Positions 36,585 to 48,776 of a DNA stretch of 64,000 bases are shown here, in pieces. Under the pieces are notes generated by a model, which made no database searches, was not told the origin of the DNA, and saw nothing but the letters and a program-made list of their open reading frames with translations. The translations under genes and the position numbers were made by a program. The stretch comes from an uncultured cyanobacterium (GTDB lineage: Bacteria > Cyanobacteriota > Cyanobacteriia > Cyanobacteriales > CAWCAG01). Within the stretch, counting starts at the first letter, position 1, and every line of letters starts with the position of its first letter. The stretch covers positions 416,001 through 480,000 of the forward strand of contig CAWDOD010000011.1 in the NCBI GenBank assembly GCA_963803805.1. The letters run 5' to 3'.

Positions 36585-36654
36585 TATAGCAACAGCCAAA
36601 GCTATTAGGACATATTTAAAGGCTCAAACCTCTTAAGTTTTGACTGGCACTATA
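36585..36654. mobile_element. 70-bp MITE-like element overlapping the PLD gene stop codon
   Basis: TATAGCAACAGCCAAA...TTTGACTGGCACTATA imperfect inverted ends. Confidence 0.45.
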
Positions 36655-37945
36655 ACTGCCATTGAAAGAAACCAACCAAGTTACCAATAATGCGGTTGCG
36701 TATAAAAGAACGCTTGCGCCACTCTTCTAAGGTTACACGCCTACTTTTTGTAAAAGCTTTCTCAAAAACTTGCTCAACATTTTTAACCAATTTTGGGTCA
36801 CTAGTAGAAATATCAAGTTCTTCATTATGATAAAAGCTACGAGGATCAAAGTTAGCACTACCTGTATTCACCCAATAGTCATCTATAAGCATTATTTTGG
36901 CATGAATCATACTTGGTTGGTATTCATATACATCTATACCAGCTTTGAGAAGTTCGCCAAATAGTTCATAGGAAGCATAGTAGACATACTTTTTGTCGCA
37001 ACGGGAACTAGTGGTTAGTATGCGTACATCTAAACCTGATTTTTTAGCTGCCTTGAGGAGTTCAATGGAATTAGTATCAGGTAAAAAATAAGGGCTAGCT
37101 AACCAAATCCGTTGGCGGCCGCAAATGATACTATTTTGTTTGAGGGCTTTGATGGGGGAAGAACGATAGGTGGGATTATCTCCTAAGCTGATCAAGATGG
37201 TTATGTTATCAGCAGGATAGGGTTTAAGCACTTGAGCGTCAAGATCCGCCGTACCACCACTATAAGTCCAGTGACTCATAAATATCCCTTCTAAAACCGC
37301 AACTATTTCCCCTTCTAAACGCATTTCTACATCTAACCAAGGTTCAGTATCATCAAATTTCTCCATGCCATCCCAATAGTCGGAAATGCCAGCCCCACCA
37401 ATTAAAGCGTATTTGCCATCAATAAGTAATAGTTTGCGGTGAGTTCTTCCTGCGTAGTTAGCAGGGGCTTTGGGGTCAAATTTATTGAAAAAGACTATTT
37501 GCACTCCCGCTTTACGCAAACGCTGCCAATAACGCTTTGGTAAGGTGTGGGTTCCATAATTATCGACAATTAACTGTACCTCAACTCCTGCGGTTGCACG
37601 TTCTGCGATCGCTGCGGCAAAATCATTGGCACGTCGCCCCGGAGTCATGAAAAAGGTTTCAAAATGGATGGTATGTTGAGCGCTTTGAATCGCTTCTAAG
37701 CGGGCGTTTTGAATCTGATCTGGTTCAGCCCAGAAATCGGTGGTGATACCAGAAGTAGTTAAGCAGTTGGAGATGCTAGCTAAGGTGAGAGTAAAGCGAG
37801 GTTCCCCTGGGTGAGGAGCATTTCTTACTCTATATTTAACCGGATCACGGAAAGCTCCTCTAATATAGAGACTTACTATGATAATGAAGACCAATGCTAA
37901 GATAGTCCAGAGTAACCACTCTAAAATTGAAATAAATATTGACAT
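36650..37945 (-). CDS. Phospholipase D / cardiolipin synthase family protein
   Basis: Two HKD motifs (HRKLLLID, HAKIMLID); N-terminal TM helix. Confidence 0.9.
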   Translation of the reverse strand: MSIFISILEWLLWTILALVFIIIVSLYIRGAFRDPVKYRVRNAPHPGEPRFTLTLASISNCLTTSGITTDFWAEPDQIQNARLEAIQSAQHTIHFETFFMTPGRRANDFAAAIAERATAGVEVQLIVDNYGTHTLPKRYWQRLRKAGVQIVFFNKFDPKAPANYAGRTHRKLLLIDGKYALIGGAGISDYWDGMEKFDDTEPWLDVEMRLEGEIVAVLEGIFMSHWTYSGGTADLDAQVLKPYPADNITILISLGDNPTYRSSPIKALKQNSIICGRQRIWLASPYFLPDTNSIELLKAAKKSGLDVRILTTSSRCDKKYVYYASYELFGELLKAGIDVYEYQPSMIHAKIMLIDDYWVNTGSANFDPRSFYHNEELDISTSDPKLVKNVEQVFEKAFTKSRRVTLEEWRKRSFIRNRIIGNLVGFFQWQL

Positions 37946-38944: not shown

Positions 38945-39334
38945 ATGGGGGCGAGTGAGGAATTTCAGAAACAACTGAAAGCAGGAAATATCGCCGAAGC
39001 ATTAGCCATTGCTGCTAATGAAGCTACTGAGTTAGAAATTATTACCTGGGTATCTTCTGGGCAAAATCATCAAACCCCTCTCACTTCTCCTCAACCCGAA
39101 AATTGCCTCCATACCCGTATCAATCTCCTTGATGCTGCCATTGAAAATGAAATAGGTAAGCAGTTTTTAGCCAAGGGGCATTACAGCGAATTAGAAGAAT
39201 TTCATCTCCAGCAGGTGAAAGAAGGAAGACAAATTGTGCAACAAAACTTAGAAAGCCTACAGCAAATTTATCTTGCCCTAGCGATCGCAACTTCTGAAAC
39301 TTCTCAATCAGAAAGTTTACCTCTTCTGGAGTGA
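38945..39334 (+). CDS. Hypothetical protein, member 1 of a four-gene paralog cluster
   Basis: AGGAGG RBS before ATG 38945; homologous to the N-terminus of the next gene. Confidence 0.8.
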   Translation: MGASEEFQKQLKAGNIAEALAIAANEATELEIITWVSSGQNHQTPLTSPQPENCLHTRINLLDAAIENEIGKQFLAKGHYSELEEFHLQQVKEGRQIVQQNLESLQQIYLALAIATSETSQSESLPLLE

Positions 39335-39496
39335 TGAGAAGATTGGGGGAAGTAATAAGTAATAAGTAATAACTTTTGAATATACTATTCCCCTTAGTCT
39401 ACGGTAGCGCTACGCAAACCCCTTTTCCCTTACCTCCTAAGATAAGCTAACTTAAGGGAAGATAGATAAAGTTTCCCATGCTTGGAAGATGATGAT

Positions 39497-41251
39497 ATGA
39501 CCTCAAGGGATGATTTAAGAGAGGCGATTAAGGCAGGCAAGTTAGCTGATGCCCTAGTGATGGCAATGAGTAATGCGGTAGAGTTGAACATCACTACCTG
39601 GATTACTTCAGAAGATAATAACTCAGAGTTAGCTAAGCAAAAAAAGCCAGAAAGAAGTCTGCGTAGTCAAATCAACTTAGTTGAGGGCAAAATCAAAAAT
39701 GAAGTAGGGGAACAATTTGTTGATAGCAATACCCATAAAGAATTGAAGCGGTTTCACCTCGAACAGGTATTGCAAGGCAATAAAACAATTAGAGATAATA
39801 TTGTAAGTTTACAAAAACTATTTCAGCTATTACAGGCAATCCAAAAACATCAAGGGGATAAAGCACTTTCTCAAGAAGCTTTACTAGATTTATTTAGTTC
39901 CACAGTTTCTAGTGAAGCAGAAATAAATCTAGTTTCTCCTGGGGCTACAACCCTAGAAGTAGAATCAGAAGAACCAGAGGTAGATGACGACTGGGATGAT
40001 TCTGTGTTGGATATTTTTGAATCTCTTCCTAATCAAGAAGCTTCAGATGATATTCCCTTTAGCCCTAATTCGGAAACGGAGTTAGTGATAGAAGCTTCGG
40101 GAAGCGATTTGTTGATGCCAACTCCAGAAATGCCAACTACTGATTTAGAAATAGAAGATTGGGAAGAAGCAAAGGTAGAATTTCAGTCTGTTGAGTCAGA
40201 GTGGGAAGATGAAACTACCGAAGAGAGTGTTTTGAGTTTAGATGATTTAGATGTTACCCCAGAAGAGGAAGAAGATTGGGGGGATTTATTAGAAGAAGAA
40301 GAATCTACATCAGCACAAAGATTAGTTGGGTTAGAGGAAGAAGTTGAAGTTGAGTTAGAACCAGAATTTGTTGTTAAACAAGAGAGGGATGCAATATCTC
40401 CTCAAGTTATTCAAGAGGTTATTGAGGAAGAGGAAGAGGAAGACTGGGGAGATTATTTAGTAACAGAAACTTCTGATAATCTAGAAAGTGTTGCTGAAGC
40501 GAGAGAGGATAATTCTTCTGAAATAGAAACCATTGAAGCAGAATCTGCGACAGTTATTCAAGAGGTTATTGAGGAAGAGGAAGAGGAAGACTGGGGAGAT
40601 TATTTAGTAGCAGAAACTCCTGATAATCTAGAAATTGTTGCTGAAGTACGAGAAGATAATTCTTCTGAAATAGAAACCATTGAAGCAGAATCTGCGACAG
40701 TTATTCAAGAAGCTATTGAGGGAGAGGAAGAAGAAGATTGGGGAGATTATTTAGTCGTAGAAACTCCTGGTGATTCAGAAATTGTTACTCAAGTACAAGA
40801 AGATAATTCTTCTGAAGAAGAAGATTTCTTTGTCACAGAAGCAAAAGCAAATGTTTTTGAATCTGAGTCCCTAACAGAAGATGATGATGAAGATTGGGGA
40901 GATTGGTTAGAAGAAGAAACTGATTCAATACCAGAGGAATTTGTAGAAATAACTCCTTCTGGTGTAACAACTTACCAAGCCCCCATTGTTCCTAACCTTG
41001 ACTCCTTAGACTTAGAAGATGATGATGATTGGGAAAAAGAGGAACAAACTATTGATACCTTTGCTGTTTCCTATGATGAGGCTACTTTGTTAGATTCAGA
41101 TTTTGAGGAAGATTGGGATGAGTTTTCTATTGAAGAATTAGAACCTTACTCTAACCTAAATATTGAGGAATCAAAAGAGCAACAAATGCCTTCGGAAACT
41201 GTTAAGGGCGACTTAAATCAAGATAAGGAAGATAAAACTAATGACAAATGA
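39497..41251 (+). CDS. Hypothetical protein, member 2; shared N-terminal domain plus a very acidic DWGD-repeat tail
   Basis: First ~120 aa align with 38945-39334; the rest is E/D-rich with repeated (E/D)nDWGD motifs. Confidence 0.8.
   Translation: MTSRDDLREAIKAGKLADALVMAMSNAVELNITTWITSEDNNSELAKQKKPERSLRSQINLVEGKIKNEVGEQFVDSNTHKELKRFHLEQVLQGNKTIRDNIVSLQKLFQLLQAIQKHQGDKALSQEALLDLFSSTVSSEAEINLVSPGATTLEVESEEPEVDDDWDDSVLDIFESLPNQEASDDIPFSPNSETELVIEASGSDLLMPTPEMPTTDLEIEDWEEAKVEFQSVESEWEDETTEESVLSLDDLDVTPEEEEDWGDLLEEEESTSAQRLVGLEEEVEVELEPEFVVKQERDAISPQVIQEVIEEEEEEDWGDYLVTETSDNLESVAEAREDNSSEIETIEAESATVIQEVIEEEEEEDWGDYLVAETPDNLEIVAEVREDNSSEIETIEAESATVIQEAIEGEEEEDWGDYLVVETPGDSEIVTQVQEDNSSEEEDFFVTEAKANVFESESLTEDDDEDWGDWLEEETDSIPEEFVEITPSGVTTYQAPIVPNLDSLDLEDDDDWEKEEQTIDTFAVSYDEATLLDSDFEEDWDEFSIEELEPYSNLNIEESKEQQMPSETVKGDLNQDKEDKTNDK
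40406..40820 (+). repeat. 147-bp (49-aa) coding tandem repeat, about 2.8 copies
   Basis: GTTATTCAAGA at 40406, 40553 and 40700. Confidence 0.9.
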
Positions 41252-42101
41252 ACTTAAAAGGAATACTAATGAAGGAGATATTTCCCATTTTAGTTTACAA
41301 AAAAGTCTCAATAATTTTGTGGCTTCTATGGGTAATGTCCTCACGGATATTACGGCATTAGAAGTAAATACCATGGTAGTTGACCACATTAGTGGTGACA
41401 AGTTTATGCCTTGGAAAACTTATCAAGATATCTATGCCATTGATCGGGCTTATTTAAAACAACACGAGGTTCATCAATCTTTGTGGGAACCTTATATGGA
41501 ACTACGCAAAGAACTCGAACTTAACTATATGTCTCTTCTTGGTGATCCAGATTCTAGCTTATACAGTCCCCAAAAAGTATCTTCTATGAAAGGGGAATCT
41601 GAGGCGATTAGCGATCCGAATGGGACAATGGAAGAGATGGTTACAGGATTGCCAAATCCTTTCGATCAAGATAGTCCCAAAGAACAAGGAGATATCCGTA
41701 GTTTGTTTGCCGATAGTCGTTTCTTGCGCTGTTTGCGTAAAATGGGAGAATTGAAAACTGCTTTAGATAATCGCAACCGTTCCTTAATTGAAGAAACAGC
41801 AGAACATGAAAGTTATGTAGCTTCGGAAGTCATTGAAAATACGGTTAAAACTGATATTATCTATGCTCAAACAGTAATTCAGCTTGATGGTGATATTATT
41901 AACCGTTTTTCCGATAAAATATTCGATCATCCCCATCGAGATTTAATTCTACAAATCCACAAAATTAGTGTCGAAAATGGTGAAAAAGAATGGCGGGGTT
42001 TATTGGGATTTGTTATTGATATAGTCCAAGCTGGTTTAGAAAAAGGTATTGGTACTGGGCTAAATTTTATAGGACGTAGCAATAATTCTGACAAAAATTG
42101 A
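41241..42101 (+). CDS. Hypothetical protein, member 3
   Basis: Overlaps the upstream stop codon; ITALEVNTMVV and YAQTVIQLDGDIINRF...IHKISVENG. Confidence 0.8.
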   Translation: MTNELKRNTNEGDISHFSLQKSLNNFVASMGNVLTDITALEVNTMVVDHISGDKFMPWKTYQDIYAIDRAYLKQHEVHQSLWEPYMELRKELELNYMSLLGDPDSSLYSPQKVSSMKGESEAISDPNGTMEEMVTGLPNPFDQDSPKEQGDIRSLFADSRFLRCLRKMGELKTALDNRNRSLIEETAEHESYVASEVIENTVKTDIIYAQTVIQLDGDIINRFSDKIFDHPHRDLILQIHKISVENGEKEWRGLLGFVIDIVQAGLEKGIGTGLNFIGRSNNSDKN

Positions 42102-42247
42102 TAATTGTAGTGGGATACCGCACCGGCGTAATGAAGTCGAAACAAAACACCACCAAAGTTACGCATCCGCAAGGGGACAAGGGGAAGGGAATGCGCACAG
42201 ATTGATAATTAAAAAGGTAACAAGGATAGAGAATTTTTAGTTGAGAT

Positions 42248-43027
42248 GTGAACAATAATCGTCTTCAAAAAGAAACAGAGAAAATAGATTCTCAAAAGAG
42301 CGTAGGCAAAGCCCACCGGAGATATCGCCATTTGTTAAAAACTTTAAATTTGGATGATTATATTCAAGTAATTAAAGAACGAGATCAGCACAAGCAGGAA
42401 GTTATTTACGGTTTTAATCTTAACTTGAATTCAGAAGTAATTTCTTTATTTAAAGAAGTCCAAACAGATAAAATTACTGTTAAACTTAGCAAAAAATTAC
42501 TCAATGATTTTCGCTACTATGCTCTTTTTGGTCAAGGAAATAGCTTTGATACAGGAATGACTTTTTGTACTTATTACCAGCAGGATGACTTTTCTCAACC
42601 AGTAATAAGAAGTTTTATTTCTCTTGATGGAGATATTGTTCAACAAATTGGCAATGATTGCTTAACTTCGCCACAACTTACCTTAGATATTATTCGCACT
42701 CACTATTGGTTAATCAACTGTTTAATTGCTGAATTACGCCTAGATATGACCAATAAGTTAAATGGGATTTCTTGGTTACTATCTTTATTAACTGTAGGAG
42801 GATTTAGTGCTACTAATTTAGAACAAATTCAAAACTTAGACCCAATTACCTATTTTGTACCAATTATTATGTCTTGGTTTTTTAAACAAGGTTTTCAAAG
42901 ATTACTATGGTTAATTGTACCTCGTTTAGGACGTTGGTTTGTACGGCAAATGTTATTTGGTATTTTCTCAAAGACGCAAAAAATGAGAGAAATGGCTTTG
43001 AAGGTTTTGGGGACAATTGGAGTTTGA
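42248..43027 (+). CDS. Hypothetical membrane protein, member 4
   Basis: IRSFISLDGDIVQQIG...THYWL followed by hydrophobic C-terminal segments. Confidence 0.72.
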   Translation: MNNNRLQKETEKIDSQKSVGKAHRRYRHLLKTLNLDDYIQVIKERDQHKQEVIYGFNLNLNSEVISLFKEVQTDKITVKLSKKLLNDFRYYALFGQGNSFDTGMTFCTYYQQDDFSQPVIRSFISLDGDIVQQIGNDCLTSPQLTLDIIRTHYWLINCLIAELRLDMTNKLNGISWLLSLLTVGGFSATNLEQIQNLDPITYFVPIIMSWFFKQGFQRLLWLIVPRLGRWFVRQMLFGIFSKTQKMREMALKVLGTIGV

Positions 43028-45086: not shown

Positions 45087-48000
45087 ATGCCAGTAATTAC
45101 GGTTCGGGAAGAAGGGCAGACGGAGACAGGATTTAGGGCTAGTTTACATTTTGATGGGGTGGGGAATTTTCCTTTAACTATCACCGAACCCTTTACATCG
45201 AAGCAGGAAGGGGAGTTGGAGTGGTATTTTGAGAGGTGGTTGAATCGCCCTCACCTGAATCAAGTTAAGGCAGAAAGGGCGGCGGGGAGTGTGAGAGATT
45301 ATGGGGAGGATTTGTTTAAGCAGGTATTTAAAAGTGATTTTGATGCTTATGGTGAGTATAAGCAGTTGCGGGGGAATTTATCAGAAGTAGAAATAGTGAT
45401 TGAAAGTCGTACTCCGGAGTTTCAGGCTTTGCATTGGGAGGCGATGTTAGATCCGGATTTGCCTCGCCCTTTGGCTGTGGATGCGGTGATGGTAAGGAAG
45501 ACGGTTAAAAGGGTGGCGGTAGAAGGAGAGGTTGATGTTTCTCCGGTGATTAATTTGTTGGTGGTGACTGCCCGCCCGAATGAAGATGATGATATTGCTT
45601 ATCGGGCAACTTCTCGCCCTTTAATCGCTGCAATTGAGAATAGTCAAGTGCCTGTGAATGTGGATTTGTTGCGCCCTGGTACTTATGAAGCTTTGGTTAG
45701 GCATTTGGAGGAAAAGCAGGCGGGTTTTTATCATATTATCCATTTTGATGGACATGGTAGTTTGGCGAGTTATGAACAGTTAAAAAGTATTGTTGAGAGT
45801 CCTTCTAAGCTGCTTAAGCGCTACGGTAGAGAAGATTTAGAAGCTTATGAAGGGGTGAAAGCTTTTCTCTATTTTGAAGGAGAAAAGAAAGGGAATGCAG
45901 ATCCGGTGGAAGCGCAAGAGTTTACTGATTTGTTGACGGGAAAGAGGATTCCGGTTTGCATTTTGGATGCTTGTCAGTCGGGGAAGCAGATTAGGGAAAT
46001 GGGGAAATGGGGAGATGGGGGGAAAGAGGAAGCGGAGATTAATGGAGGCAGAGAATCTTCCCAAGACAATTCTAGAGATTCCTCCGAGGCGGAAACTAGC
46101 CTGGGTAGTCGTTTGATGGCGGCGGGGATGCAGATGGTTATTGCTATGAGTTATTCTGTCACTGTTTCGGCTGCTGGGTTGTTGATGGCAGAAATGTATC
46201 GTCATCTTTGTGACAAAAAGTCTTTCCGGGAAGCCATTAGGTTGGGGCGGTTGGAGTTGTTTAACAACAAGGAGAGAAAGGCTGGTTGGAATCAAACTAT
46301 TAAATTAGAAGATTGGTTATTACCAGTGGTTTATTCCCATCGCCCTGTTGAATTGGGTTTGCGGGAATTTACCCCCCAGGAAGAAGAGGATTTTTATAAT
46401 TCCCAAGGGGATGAATATCGCTTTCCGCAACCGGAATATGGTTTTCTGGGGAGGGAGTTGGAGATATTGAAGATTGAAAAGGCTTTGTTGCGCCACAATA
46501 TCCTTTTGTTGCAAGGTATGGGAGGGACAGGCAAAACTACCCTGTTGAATTATTTGCGGGAATGGTGGCAAGTTACCAACTTTGCGGAGAAGATATTTTA
46601 TTTTGGTTATGATGAGAAGCCTTGGAGTTTAGAACAAATTGTTCACAACTTGGGTAAGGGAATTTATGACAGGTTTAAGCAAGCAAGCTTCCAAGCCATG
46701 AATCCCAAGGCACAGGCACAGAAGTTAATTAAGGAGTTGAAAAGTAACAATTATATTCTCATCCTCGATAACCTAGAATCTGTGACGGGGCAACAGTTGG
46801 CAATTCAAAATACCCTGACGAAGGAACAACAGGAAGAGTTACGCAACTTCCTTAGCCAGTTAAAGGGCGGTAAAACTAAAATAATTTTCGGTTCCCGCAG
46901 TGGGGAAGAGTGGCTGCAAAAGCAAACCTTTCAAAGCAACAGCTATCAACTCCCCGGCTTAGATCCCCAATCCCGTTCAACTTTGGCAGAGAGAATCTTG
47001 CAACGTCAGGTAGGGGATGAGGAAAAGATTACTAATTATCGCCAAAGTGAAGATTTTAACCGCTTGATGACATTGTTGGGGGGTTATCCTTTAGCCATGG
47101 AAGTTGTCTTAGCTAACCTGAAGCAACAAACTCCCACGGAAGTTTTGGCAGGGATGGAAGCCGGGGAAATTGCTTTGGATAGCGGGAGTGAGGAGAAGAC
47201 GGCGAGTATTGTTAAATGTGTGGAATATTCCCACAGTAACTTATCTCCGCAAGCACAAAGGTTATTGTTGTGTTTAGCACCTTTTCGGAAATTTATTGAT
47301 AGCCGGGATATTCCTAATTATGCCAAGCAGTTGCAGAAGTTAGCACCTTTTCAAAGTTACGACTTTACTAACTTTGCTGGGGCGATTGAGGAGGCGATTA
47401 GTTGGGGTTTGCTTTCGCCCATGGGAGATGATTCTCCTTTGCTGACGATACAGCCGGTATTTCCCTATTTTTTGAAGACGAAATTAAAAGAATTGGAGGA
47501 GGAGACTGGGGCAGCATTGGAGGAGGGGTTTAAAAATCATTACGTTGCTTTGGCGAATTATTATAATCATTTGATGGAGTCTAAGGAGGCGGAAAAGAGG
47601 AAGTTAGGCATCTTTTTCTGTGGCTTGGAATATGAGAATCTTTATAGTGCTTTGCAGGTTTGTTTGCGGAAGCAGGAAACTGTGGATATTTTCTTTTGCT
47701 TGGATCAGTACTTAGAGTTGATTAATGATATTCCTAGTGGGTTGAAGTTAGCAGAGTTTGTGGTTGAGGTGCAGGTTGCTTATCCGGAAGAAATTAGAAG
47801 GGGTGAGATAGGTTGGGAAATAGTTATGGCACAGGATAGATTGGCTTACTGTTACTTGGAAATGCAACGTTACCAAGAAGCTAAGGAAGCTTATGGGAAA
47901 GTAGCAGAGTTGTCTCAAGAATTAACAGGAATAGAAGAGAAGGAAAAGCAAAAGTATTTAGCTACTACCCGGCATAACTTGGGATATGTAGCCCAGGAGT

Positions 48001-48776
48001 TACGGGAGTTTGCCCAGGCACAGCAGTACTATCAACAAGCTTTGGATATCAAAATTGCCTATGGGGATACCCACTCCCAAGCTAGTACCCTGCATCAGTT
48101 GGGAAGAGTGGCACAGGAGTCACGGGAGTTTGCCCAGGCACAGCAGTATTATCAACAAGCTTTGGATATCTATGTTGAATATGGGGATACCTACTCCCAA
48201 GCTGGAACCCTGCATGACTTGGGATATGTAGCCCAGGAGTCACGGGAGTTTGCCCAGGCACAGCAGTACTATCAACAAGCTTTGGATATCAAAATTGCCT
48301 ATGGCGATACCCACTCTCAAGCTAGTACCCTGCATCACTTGGGATATGTAGCCCAGGAGTCACGGGAGTTTGCCCAGGCACAGCAGTACTATCAACAAGC
48401 TTTGGATATCAAAATTGCCTATGGCGATACCCACTCTCAAGCTAAAACCCTGCATCACTTGGGAATGGTGGCACAGGAGTTACGGGAGTTTGCCCAGGCA
48501 CAGCAGTACTTTCAACAAGCTTTTGATATCTATGTTGAATATGGCGATCGCTACTCCCAAGGTGGAATCCTTGGACAATTAGGCTTGTTAGCAGAGGCTC
48601 AGGAGGATTATGAGCAAGCAAGGAGTTATTTGCAGCAAGCTTTAGAGATTTATGTAGAGTTTCAGGATGAATATTATATTGAGGTGGTGCAACGGAATTT
48701 GGAGAGGCTGGGGAATCGGGAAAAGGAAGTGAAAAGATTGCTGTTGAGATTAAAAGCTTTTTACGAGAATCTTTAG
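45087..48776 (+). CDS. CHAT protease domain + P-loop NTPase (STAND-like) + TPR protein
   Basis: CHAT dyad HFDGHG and LDACQSG; Walker A GMGGTGKT, Walker B ILILDNLE, GYPLA; C-terminal 40-aa TPRs. Confidence 0.88.
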   Translation: MPVITVREEGQTETGFRASLHFDGVGNFPLTITEPFTSKQEGELEWYFERWLNRPHLNQVKAERAAGSVRDYGEDLFKQVFKSDFDAYGEYKQLRGNLSEVEIVIESRTPEFQALHWEAMLDPDLPRPLAVDAVMVRKTVKRVAVEGEVDVSPVINLLVVTARPNEDDDIAYRATSRPLIAAIENSQVPVNVDLLRPGTYEALVRHLEEKQAGFYHIIHFDGHGSLASYEQLKSIVESPSKLLKRYGREDLEAYEGVKAFLYFEGEKKGNADPVEAQEFTDLLTGKRIPVCILDACQSGKQIREMGKWGDGGKEEAEINGGRESSQDNSRDSSEAETSLGSRLMAAGMQMVIAMSYSVTVSAAGLLMAEMYRHLCDKKSFREAIRLGRLELFNNKERKAGWNQTIKLEDWLLPVVYSHRPVELGLREFTPQEEEDFYNSQGDEYRFPQPEYGFLGRELEILKIEKALLRHNILLLQGMGGTGKTTLLNYLREWWQVTNFAEKIFYFGYDEKPWSLEQIVHNLGKGIYDRFKQASFQAMNPKAQAQKLIKELKSNNYILILDNLESVTGQQLAIQNTLTKEQQEELRNFLSQLKGGKTKIIFGSRSGEEWLQKQTFQSNSYQLPGLDPQSRSTLAERILQRQVGDEEKITNYRQSEDFNRLMTLLGGYPLAMEVVLANLKQQTPTEVLAGMEAGEIALDSGSEEKTASIVKCVEYSHSNLSPQAQRLLLCLAPFRKFIDSRDIPNYAKQLQKLAPFQSYDFTNFAGAIEEAISWGLLSPMGDDSPLLTIQPVFPYFLKTKLKELEEETGAALEEGFKNHYVALANYYNHLMESKEAEKRKLGIFFCGLEYENLYSALQVCLRKQETVDIFFCLDQYLELINDIPSGLKLAEFVVEVQVAYPEEIRRGEIGWEIVMAQDRLAYCYLEMQRYQEAKEAYGKVAELSQELTGIEEKEKQKYLATTRHNLGYVAQELREFAQAQQYYQQALDIKIAYGDTHSQASTLHQLGRVAQESREFAQAQQYYQQALDIYVEYGDTYSQAGTLHDLGYVAQESREFAQAQQYYQQALDIKIAYGDTHSQASTLHHLGYVAQESREFAQAQQYYQQALDIKIAYGDTHSQAKTLHHLGMVAQELREFAQAQQYFQQAFDIYVEYGDRYSQGGILGQLGLLAEAQEDYEQARSYLQQALEIYVEFQDEYYIEVVQRNLERLGNREKEVKRLLLRLKAFYENL
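47961..48560 (+). repeat. Five near-identical 120-bp (40-aa TPR) coding repeats
   Basis: CGGGAGTTTGCCCAGGCACAGCAGTA recurs at an exact 120-nt period. Confidence 0.92.

Follow-up and report, generated by a model that had tools for sequence, protein, structure and literature searches.

A syntenic cyanobacterial gene cluster whose four proteins appear to share one small module, with a tryptophan-acidic tail in one and a predicted membrane hairpin in another

We analysed a window of 64,000 nucleotides from an uncultured cyanobacterium (assembly GCA_963803805.1, contig CAWDOD010000011.1, positions 416,001 to 480,000) in which four co-oriented open reading frames (ORFs) on the + strand, here called g1 to g4, occupy positions 38945-43027. 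A preliminary description of this DNA had proposed that the four proteins share one domain, standing alone in g1, fused to an acidic tail in g2, interrupted by a large insertion in g3 and joined to a membrane anchor in g4, and that such a set might build a shell, filament or pore. We find a common module in g1 and g2, with good evidence for it in g3 and probable membership of g4, in a cluster whose gene order is conserved in many cyanobacteria. Its most distinctive part is the tail of g2, in which a short tryptophan-acidic motif is repeated. Tentatively, we favour an explanation in which the four proteins form a membrane-anchored hetero-oligomer that displays this tail.

Results

A module shared by the four proteins

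BLASTP aligned g1 with the first 115 residues of g2 at 37% identity across 109 aa (E 4e-27), and by this comparison g1 and the N-terminal domain of g2 are clear paralogs. Between g3 and g4 it detected an LDGDI stretch only (E 0.022), and zero pairwise matches joined g1 or g2 to g3 or g4. Family alignments were therefore built from 20 syntenic clusters of related genomes, giving A1 for the g1/g2 module (36 sequences), A2 for the g3 family (21) and A3 for the g4 family (18), with deeper alignments of the g3 family (A4, 68 sequences) and the g4 family (A5, 76 sequences). When these were compared by hhalign, the g1/g2 module matched the g3 family at E 8.9e-4 (A1 against A2; 3.2e-4 for A1 against A4) and the g4 family at E 2.3e-3 (A1 against A3; 3.0e-4 for A1 against A5), and the g3 and g4 families matched each other at E 3.2e-5 (A2 against A3; 7e-5 for A4 against A5). 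Trimming the latter pair to the motif region (A2C against A3C) gave E 2.9e-7 with a probability of 93%. The untrimmed probabilities are modest, at 12-72%, and we therefore count g4 as a probable member of the set, short of proven.

All three family comparisons fall in one common register, the one in which the preliminary description had aligned the motif by eye, and every motif string that it quoted is found in the g1-g4 translations. Each score also exceeds its controls: A1 against A2 scored 28.8 (reversed target 21.5, maximum of 60 column shuffles 20.1), A1 against A3 25.9 (15.8 and 19.3) and A2 against A3 40.7 (16.8 and 19.1), so that 0 of 60 column shuffles reached the observed score in any of the three. 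The same register was returned by MAFFT alone from 75 core segments of the three families, in which the glycine of the DG turn (G13) and a histidine (H36) are at least 90% conserved and one threonine at least 70%. A combined core profile, searched against the 5.3-Mb source genome, found exactly g1-g4 and nothing more up to E 1.

The likeness between the g1/g2 and g3 families extends upstream of this core, where the N-terminal helix and strand of A1 (…EALxLAxSEAxELxITTWV) align with those of A2 (…SLxxVLxDITALEVNTMVV) at E 0.0094; the copies of the strand read ELEIITWV, ELNITTWI and ALEVNTMV. Trimmed N-terminal parts gave no hhalign match for g4. Its SGLTFCTYY stretch may, by eye, be the counterpart of the ELxITTWV strand, a pairing that the trimmed comparison leaves unsupported. 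The complete module is ~100 aa long and runs helix, strand 1, variable loop, strand 2, DG turn, strand 3, long helix. It is marked by two nearly invariant residues, a Gly at the turn and a His close to the start of the final helix. An observation from a genome of another order may be taken as an independent sign of a motif common to g3 and g4: at G330:C30:5101-5235 the g3-family profile on its own also matches the next gene downstream, within that gene's motif region (E 3.4e-4), and the core profile confirmed that match (E 1.6e-10).

Predicted structures

AlphaFold2 (AF2) models were obtained for g1 from the 36-sequence alignment, with a mean predicted local distance difference test score (pLDDT) of 81.0 and a predicted TM score (pTM) of 0.61, and for g3 from 68 sequences (pLDDT 74.5, pTM 0.63). 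With helices written H and strands E, the g1 model consists of H5-12, H16-27, E29-35, E54-60, E65-70 and H81-122, and the g3 model of H14-36, E39-46, a helical block at 57-188, E207-214, E219-223, H225-229 and H233-269. The element order is identical in the two: helix, strand, loop or insertion, strand, strand, long helix. The upstream strand is a beta strand in both models, and the insertion of g3, ~160 aa long, lies between the first two strands, in the loop that corresponds to the stretch of A1 whose length varies.

VIA-align searches of 48,161 PDB representatives, run separately with each AF2 model, both ranked the YbaB/EbfC family (PF02575; 1pug, 1j8b, 3f42, 1ybx, 5yrx) first. The top matches of g1 were 1pug (Z 5.2, root-mean-square deviation (rmsd) 5.2, 81 residues aligned), 3f42 (4.5-4.8), 1ybx (4.2), 1j8b (4.2) and 5yrx (4.1), and a second look at g1 gave 1pug at 5.2, 3f42 at 4.8, 1j8b at 4.2 and 5yrx at 4.1 as the top four. 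Those of g3 were 3f42 (Z 6.3, rmsd 5.8, 80 aligned), 1ybx (5.7), 1pug (5.4) and 5yrx (4.9), in an alignment that spans residues ~15 to ~270 and bridges the insertion. The matches cover 68-92 of 71-94 target residues, and, like the module as modelled, the YbaB proteins consist of a helix, a three-stranded antiparallel sheet and a long helix. Foldseek searches of the PDB with the g1 and g3 models gave no match at E <=0.001. The helical insertion of g3 drew VIA-align matches to BAR-like and other helical bundles at Z ~5, which we set aside as unspecific.

With Z values below the tool's caution line, we take two limited points from the models: g1 and g3 probably have a common core, and its topology resembles that of YbaB. 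The profile match, the AF2 topology and the common top structural neighbours together make a good case that g3 carries the same module as g1 and g2. The single domain of the preliminary description accordingly holds firmly for g1 and g2 and on good grounds for g3, and for g4 at the level of profile evidence only; the strand that it saw upstream of the motif in genes 1-3 and the large insertion that it ascribed to g3 are both borne out.

Comparison with YbaB and COMMD proteins

As judged from profiles, g1-g4 are not members of the YbaB family. PF02575 matches none of them in a Pfam scan, and a PF02575 search found one canonical ybaB in the source genome, on contig C3 only, and ybaB in 40 of the 41 related genomes described below. 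When A1, A2 and A3 were compared by hhalign with 30 cyanobacterial YbaB proteins, both in full and trimmed, no consistent register emerged; the best match (E 0.0086 over 20 columns) placed the C-terminal helix of g1 on the N-terminal helix of YbaB. The proteins also differ in charge, the module being acidic (median net charge -5.5 in 36 sequences, and -6 in 68 sequences of the g3 family) and YbaB basic, and in arrangement, in that a single operon encodes four paralogs of the module, each with its own additions. YbaB is a tight homodimer with a dimer-forming fold, and pairing of the g1-g4 modules is therefore plausible. The YbaB likeness favours such pairing of subunits and holds no pointer to shells, filaments or pores.

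In eukaryotes, COMMD paralogs form rings in which a small sheet-plus-helix unit lies behind a helical N-domain, and they assemble into hetero-oligomers. COMMD and bacterial COMMD-like proteins (8p0w, 8f2r, 8esd, 9q6c) may resemble g1-g4 in being paralog sets with a small sheet-plus-helix unit. COMMD chains occur among the weak Foldseek matches at non-significant values (g3, E 0.3-1.5; g1, E 4.1; TM 0.10-0.15), and none is among the listed VIA-align matches; we treat this likeness as a lead only.

The acidic tail of g2

In the window the tail of g2, put at ~450 aa in the preliminary description, has 464 aa, of which 165 are D or E (36%) and 14 are K or R. All 11 of its tryptophans lie within an acidic run, as in EEEEEDWGDYL. 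A 147-bp tandem repeat (window 40405-40816) duplicates a 49-aa unit that bears one such motif, EEEEEDWGDYL, and three motif units derive from the repeat, which suggests that motif number changed recently and is still changing. Judged by composition alone, the tail is disordered-looking and probably lacks a fixed fold.

The motif is kept in orthologs. A profile search with A1 gathered a g1/g2 module family of 729 clusters at 50% identity, and among the best 150 of these the module begins within the first five residues in 144 proteins; the 130 of these 150 proteins with at least 250 aa supplied ortholog tails. These tails average E 16%, D 12%, P 10% and S 10%, with K and R together below 3%, and in the first 20 clusters their length ranges from 41 to ~1950 aa. 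Around their 1097 tryptophan sites the logo reads [ED][ED][DE]-E-D-W-[G/D/E]-[D/E]-[L/F/W]-[V/E], with D in 53% of cases at -1, G, D or E in 70% at +1 and F, L or W at +3. The pattern [DE][DE]W[GDEN][DEN] occurs at least once in 96 of the 130 tails, against 10.25 of 130 after shuffling (~ninefold), and DWG[DE] followed by two hydrophobic residues occurs in 60 of 130 against 0 shuffled; a single tail can hold up to 19 copies of the W-acidic motif.

Many g2 orthologs (loci L059-L113, for example L076:4806-6968 and L082:2231-3901) end in a conserved basic-polyproline C-terminus of the type KRVPPPPPPPSRFPNQNN, and a run of at least four prolines falls within the last 40 aa of 37/130 tails and at 22/67 named loci. 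The g2 of the window (39482-41251) is without this C-terminus, which in the orthologs may be a second docking motif.

W-acidic motifs have been described as docking motifs elsewhere, and these offer the nearest functional parallels to the tail. According to two reports on kinesin-1, ligands of the light-chain tetratricopeptide repeat (TPR) domain carry a tryptophan flanked by acidic residues in a disordered region (PMC6214655, PMC5450233), and a report on the Streptococcus mutans WalK-WalR pair places a W-acidic docking motif in the C-terminal tail of WalK (PMC9087282). The g2 tail resembles the kinesin-1 ligands and the WalK tail in presenting a W-acidic short linear motif within a disordered-looking region, and it is unlike them in the form of the motif (E-E-D-W-G-D-hydrophobic), in its repetition up to 19 times per tail and in being cyanobacterial.

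A predicted membrane hairpin in the g4 family

Two hydrophobic segments (hydropathy KD17 >=1.5) are present in 67 of 76 g4-family sequences, a median of 7 residues apart. The mean number of K and R residues is 2.25 before the hairpin, 0.39 in the 7-aa loop and 3.27 after it. By this distribution the hairpin is predicted to be N-in/C-in, with a basic tail after it and the soluble part of the protein in the cytoplasm. The membrane anchor of the preliminary description therefore stands, as a prediction, at the level of the family, whereas the copy in the window, to which the claim referred, is weakly hydrophobic.

Conservation and genomic neighbourhood

Conservation of the cluster, on which the preliminary description had made its proposal depend, was followed in three sets of genomes. 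Among 41 related genomes, from one order and 38 families, g1 is present in 25, g3 in 24 and g4 in 21, adjacent and in the same order, and the order 1-2-3-4 is found in ~19. A species-representative collection yielded 219 relatives in all, every named one cyanobacterial, and 80 named loci of this collection were compared. The members are co-stranded at 80/80 of these loci, and the complete order 1-2-3-4 on one strand is present at 57/80; the other 23 are contig-end truncations or variants with the patterns 34 (seven loci), 234 (six), 123 (four), 134 (three), 3 (two) and 23 (one). Among the named genera are Moorena, Symploca, Caldora, Coleofasciculus, Allocoleopsis, Spirulina, Lusitaniella, Crinalium, Limnothrix, Roseofilum, Phormidium (P. 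lacuna), Prochloron, Aphanothece, Cyanosarcina and Waterburya. The complete set is present in Phormidium lacuna HE10JO (L130), which is naturally transformable. When 401 genomes sampled evenly across the phylum were searched, g3 was found in 36, namely the source genome, 33 others from its order and 2 from a different order within the class; the rest of the sample gave none, for example 0/29, 0/25 and 0/20 in families f44, f32 and f9. The combined core profile matched 42 of the 401, with 3-4 matches per genome where the cluster is present. The distribution is cyanobacterial only, and mostly within one order. The objection that the preliminary description foresaw, a cluster that is not conserved, is answered by the order kept at 57/80 loci and in ~19 of the 41 genomes.

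Smaller sets also occur. Genomes of family f7 (G065, G077, G092, G128 and others) have a three-gene form, with a short g1-like gene, g3 and g4 and without the long acidic-tailed member, and those of family f35 (G036, G254, G318) have one g1-like gene of 114-119 aa only.

In a maximum-likelihood tree of 36 modules, short (g1-type) forms fall largely apart from long (g2-type) forms, needing 3 label changes where shuffled labels need ~12 on average (0 of 500 shuffles as low), and a single clade of short forms is compatible with the tree (approximately unbiased test, p-AU 0.51). This separation indicates that the duplication is old and that both copies were retained.

Within the cluster, the last 11 nt of g2 are also the first of g3, and there are zero + strand terminator-like sites. 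Because of these features and the common strand, g1-g4 are probably one operon, limited to cyanobacteria, strictly ordered and probably co-translated. Counts from a promoter and terminator scan of the cluster were not above shuffled expectation and are hence uninformative.

Upstream of the cluster, a Maf gene (PF02545, example E 1e-56) lies directly adjacent and co-oriented at 45/80 loci, at a median gap of 160 bp, with a PsbP gene upstream of Maf at 29/80. The arrangement psbP-maf-g1-g2-g3-g4, all co-oriented, is common elsewhere (L057-L136). In the source genome maf is on another contig (G000:C8:92047-92592), and the maf linkage is therefore broken there. A TPR protein gene lies upstream at 21/80 loci, divergent in 20 of the 21, and is a suggestive candidate for a partner of the tail. 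No conserved downstream neighbour was found across the 80 loci.

Database and literature searches

Scans of g1-g4 against Pfam-A and NCBIfam gave no family match (best E 0.02-0.2, scores far below the cut-offs), precomputed Pfam annotation is empty for all 549 g3-family and 117 g4-family relatives, and none of the four proteins matched a PADLOC model of anti-phage defence at E 0.01. In all sources the annotation is hypothetical, as for Cri9333_1913 and Cri9333_1914 of Crinalium epipsammum PCC 9333. The ESM Atlas gave no usable match for g3; for g1 it returned clathrin/VPS/TPR-like helical fragments (score <=0.90, low recognition (1811)), which we read as a generic helix pair. Window 38957-39025 (g1 residues 5-27) has a sub-threshold match to the Pfam family Clathrin_H_link (E 0.023), and the clathrin likeness of this N-terminal helix pair is probably a generic helix-turn-helix resemblance. 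A PDB sequence search with profile A1 gave a single match, a phage tail-tube connector at E 0.15, which was rejected. A full-text literature search found no description of the family or the operon, though supplementary tables could still mention either. As far as this search goes, the family and the operon are undescribed, and it is in this limited sense that they are new.

Features of the cluster and other ORFs in the window

Features of the g1-g4 cluster, in window coordinates
Feature	Coordinates	Strand	Description or basis
g1	38945..39334	+	129 aa from ATG 38945, 139 aa from TTG 38915
g2	39482/39497-41251	+	589 aa; TTG 39482, ATG 39497
g2 N-terminal module	39497..39871	+	paralog of g1, 37% identity, E 4e-27
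g2 polyacidic tail	39872..41251	+	composition; W-acidic motif kept in ortholog tails
Tandem repeat in g2 tail	40405..40816	+	147 bp, 2.8 copies, 92% matches
g3	41241-42101	+	286 aa; module split by ~160-aa helical insertion
g4	42248-43027	+	259 aa; N-terminal extension, probable module motif, predicted hydrophobic hairpin, basic tail
g4 strand-turn-strand-helix motif (probable)	42596-42727 (residues ~117-160)	+	hhalign profile match
g4 predicted two-segment membrane hairpin	42764..42883 (residues ~173-212)	+	hydropathy, positive-inside rule

For both g1 and g2 the ORF itself opens at the TTG codon, and ortholog starts match the ATG (38945 and 39497, respectively). The flanks of the cluster are unrelated to it in a Pfam scan, with a divergent S-adenosylmethionine (SAM)-methyltransferase upstream and a Rieske/VanA_C oxygenase downstream. 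Farther downstream, at 45087-48776 (+), a 1229-aa ORF ends in long near-identical repeats (REFAQAQQYYQQALDI... units) that are TPR-like in look. On the other side of the cluster, a 431-aa ORF at 36650-37945 (-) has an N-terminal hydrophobic segment and, by eye, two HxK(x)4D-like stretches (…THRKLLLIDG… and …IHAKIMLIDD…), which suggest a phospholipase D or cardiolipin-synthase-type enzyme.

Discussion

The explanation that we prefer, and hold tentatively, is a hetero-oligomer of the four paralogs, anchored at the cytoplasmic face of a membrane, in which g2 displays a polyanionic docking tail. The modules would pair with one another, as in the topologically similar YbaB dimer, to build the hetero-oligomer; g4 would anchor it by its two-helix hairpin, g3 would bring its conserved helical insertion domain, and g2 would project its long, polyanionic and probably disordered tail. 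The [DE][DE]-D-W-[GDE]-[DE]-hydrophobic repeats of this tail may act as multivalent docking sites for a basic or TPR-like client, or perhaps as an electrostatic brush. As a tail-less alternative to g2, g1 could dilute or cap it, and the conserved Thr, Gly and His may form part of a pairing or ligand site. The four paralogs have stood side by side since before many cyanobacterial families diverged, which argues for a non-redundant and probably stoichiometric assembly. Several observations weigh against this explanation. Some genomes have three genes, lacking the long-tailed g2, or a single g1-like gene, so that the four-part set is not obligatory; the YbaB likeness is weak, with Z values of 4-6 that lie under the tool's caution line of Z 8 and Foldseek E values of at least 0.65; the hairpin of the g4 in the window reaches KD17 values of only 1.33 and 1.05; and the membership of g4 is a profile match of 38-43 columns, with a probability of 12-72% (93% when trimmed).

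Part of this evidence could be accommodated if the module is shared and the proteins act separately or in pairs, with no stable four-part complex; g1 could then be a tail-less competitor that regulates g2, for example, and g3 and g4 a separate membrane pair. The patterns 134 and 234, the g1-like singletons and the closer relation within each of the pairs g1/g2 and g3/g4 than across them all fit such a division of labour, which we nevertheless consider unlikely, since the fixed order, the tight spacing and overlap of g2, g3 and g4 and the near-identical phyletic pattern (25, 24 and 21 of 41) point to stoichiometric co-production. A more radical doubt is that only g1 and g2 are true paralogs and that the likeness of g3 and g4 to them is a short motif that arose by convergence or is fortuitous. 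The modest hhalign probabilities and the lack of a BLAST match between g1/g2 and g3/g4 leave room for it, but we regard it as very improbable: all three comparisons share one register and stand above every shuffle and reversed control, the N-terminal helix and strand of A1 and A2 also align, the AF2 models of g1 and g3 agree in topology and, from 48,161 chains, each bring up one and the same family first, and the genes are always adjacent. Less credence still goes to the idea that g1-g4 are nucleoid-associated proteins diverged from the YbaB type, with a role in fastening DNA to the membrane or in mimicking DNA. YbaB is indeed the top structural neighbour of both models, but the one canonical ybaB that PF02575 finds lies elsewhere in the genome, the comparison with 30 cyanobacterial YbaB proteins produced no consistent register, and modules as acidic as these are ill-suited to DNA binding.

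Two other proposals concern what the proteins might do. In other bacteria maf adjoins shape and division genes, and the co-oriented Maf gene found directly upstream at 45 of 80 loci could place the complex in cell division or envelope morphogenesis. We think this quite unlikely, because the maf of the source genome is on another contig, the PsbP gene conserved farther upstream at 29 loci encodes a photosystem II protein and points elsewhere, and gene adjacency alone is weak evidence. The g2 tail might instead be a membrane-held sink for cations (Ca2+, Mg2+, metals) or a mineral nucleator in which the W motifs are incidental, as the abundance of E and D, the scarcity of K and R across the 130 orthologs and the wide range of tail length would lead one to expect if bulk charge outweighs exact sequence. 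The W motif is, however, position-specific and ~ninefold more frequent than in shuffled tails, which fits docking better than bulk charge, and we judge the sink improbable.

Whatever its exact role, the cluster defines a large, strictly syntenic family that has no Pfam or NCBIfam model and no informative name, and multivalent disordered scaffolds with a repeated W-acidic motif have rarely been described in bacteria. It is conceivable, though we are doubtful, that the four proteins, as paralogs of a new domain, constitute a new membrane-anchored cyanobacterial machine, whose giant polyanionic arm with its repeated W-acidic motifs would be a multivalent hub that brings a basic or TPR-type client to the thylakoids or the envelope; if true, this hub would be a bacterial counterpart of the W-acidic cargo-adaptor logic of eukaryotes. 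The hosts include mat-forming, natural-product-rich and ecologically important cyanobacteria such as Moorena, Symploca, Coleofasciculus and Spirulina. If the complex resides on their thylakoid or cytoplasmic membranes, encoded as it is near psbP and maf in many genomes, it may bear on how these membranes are organised or on how the cells divide.

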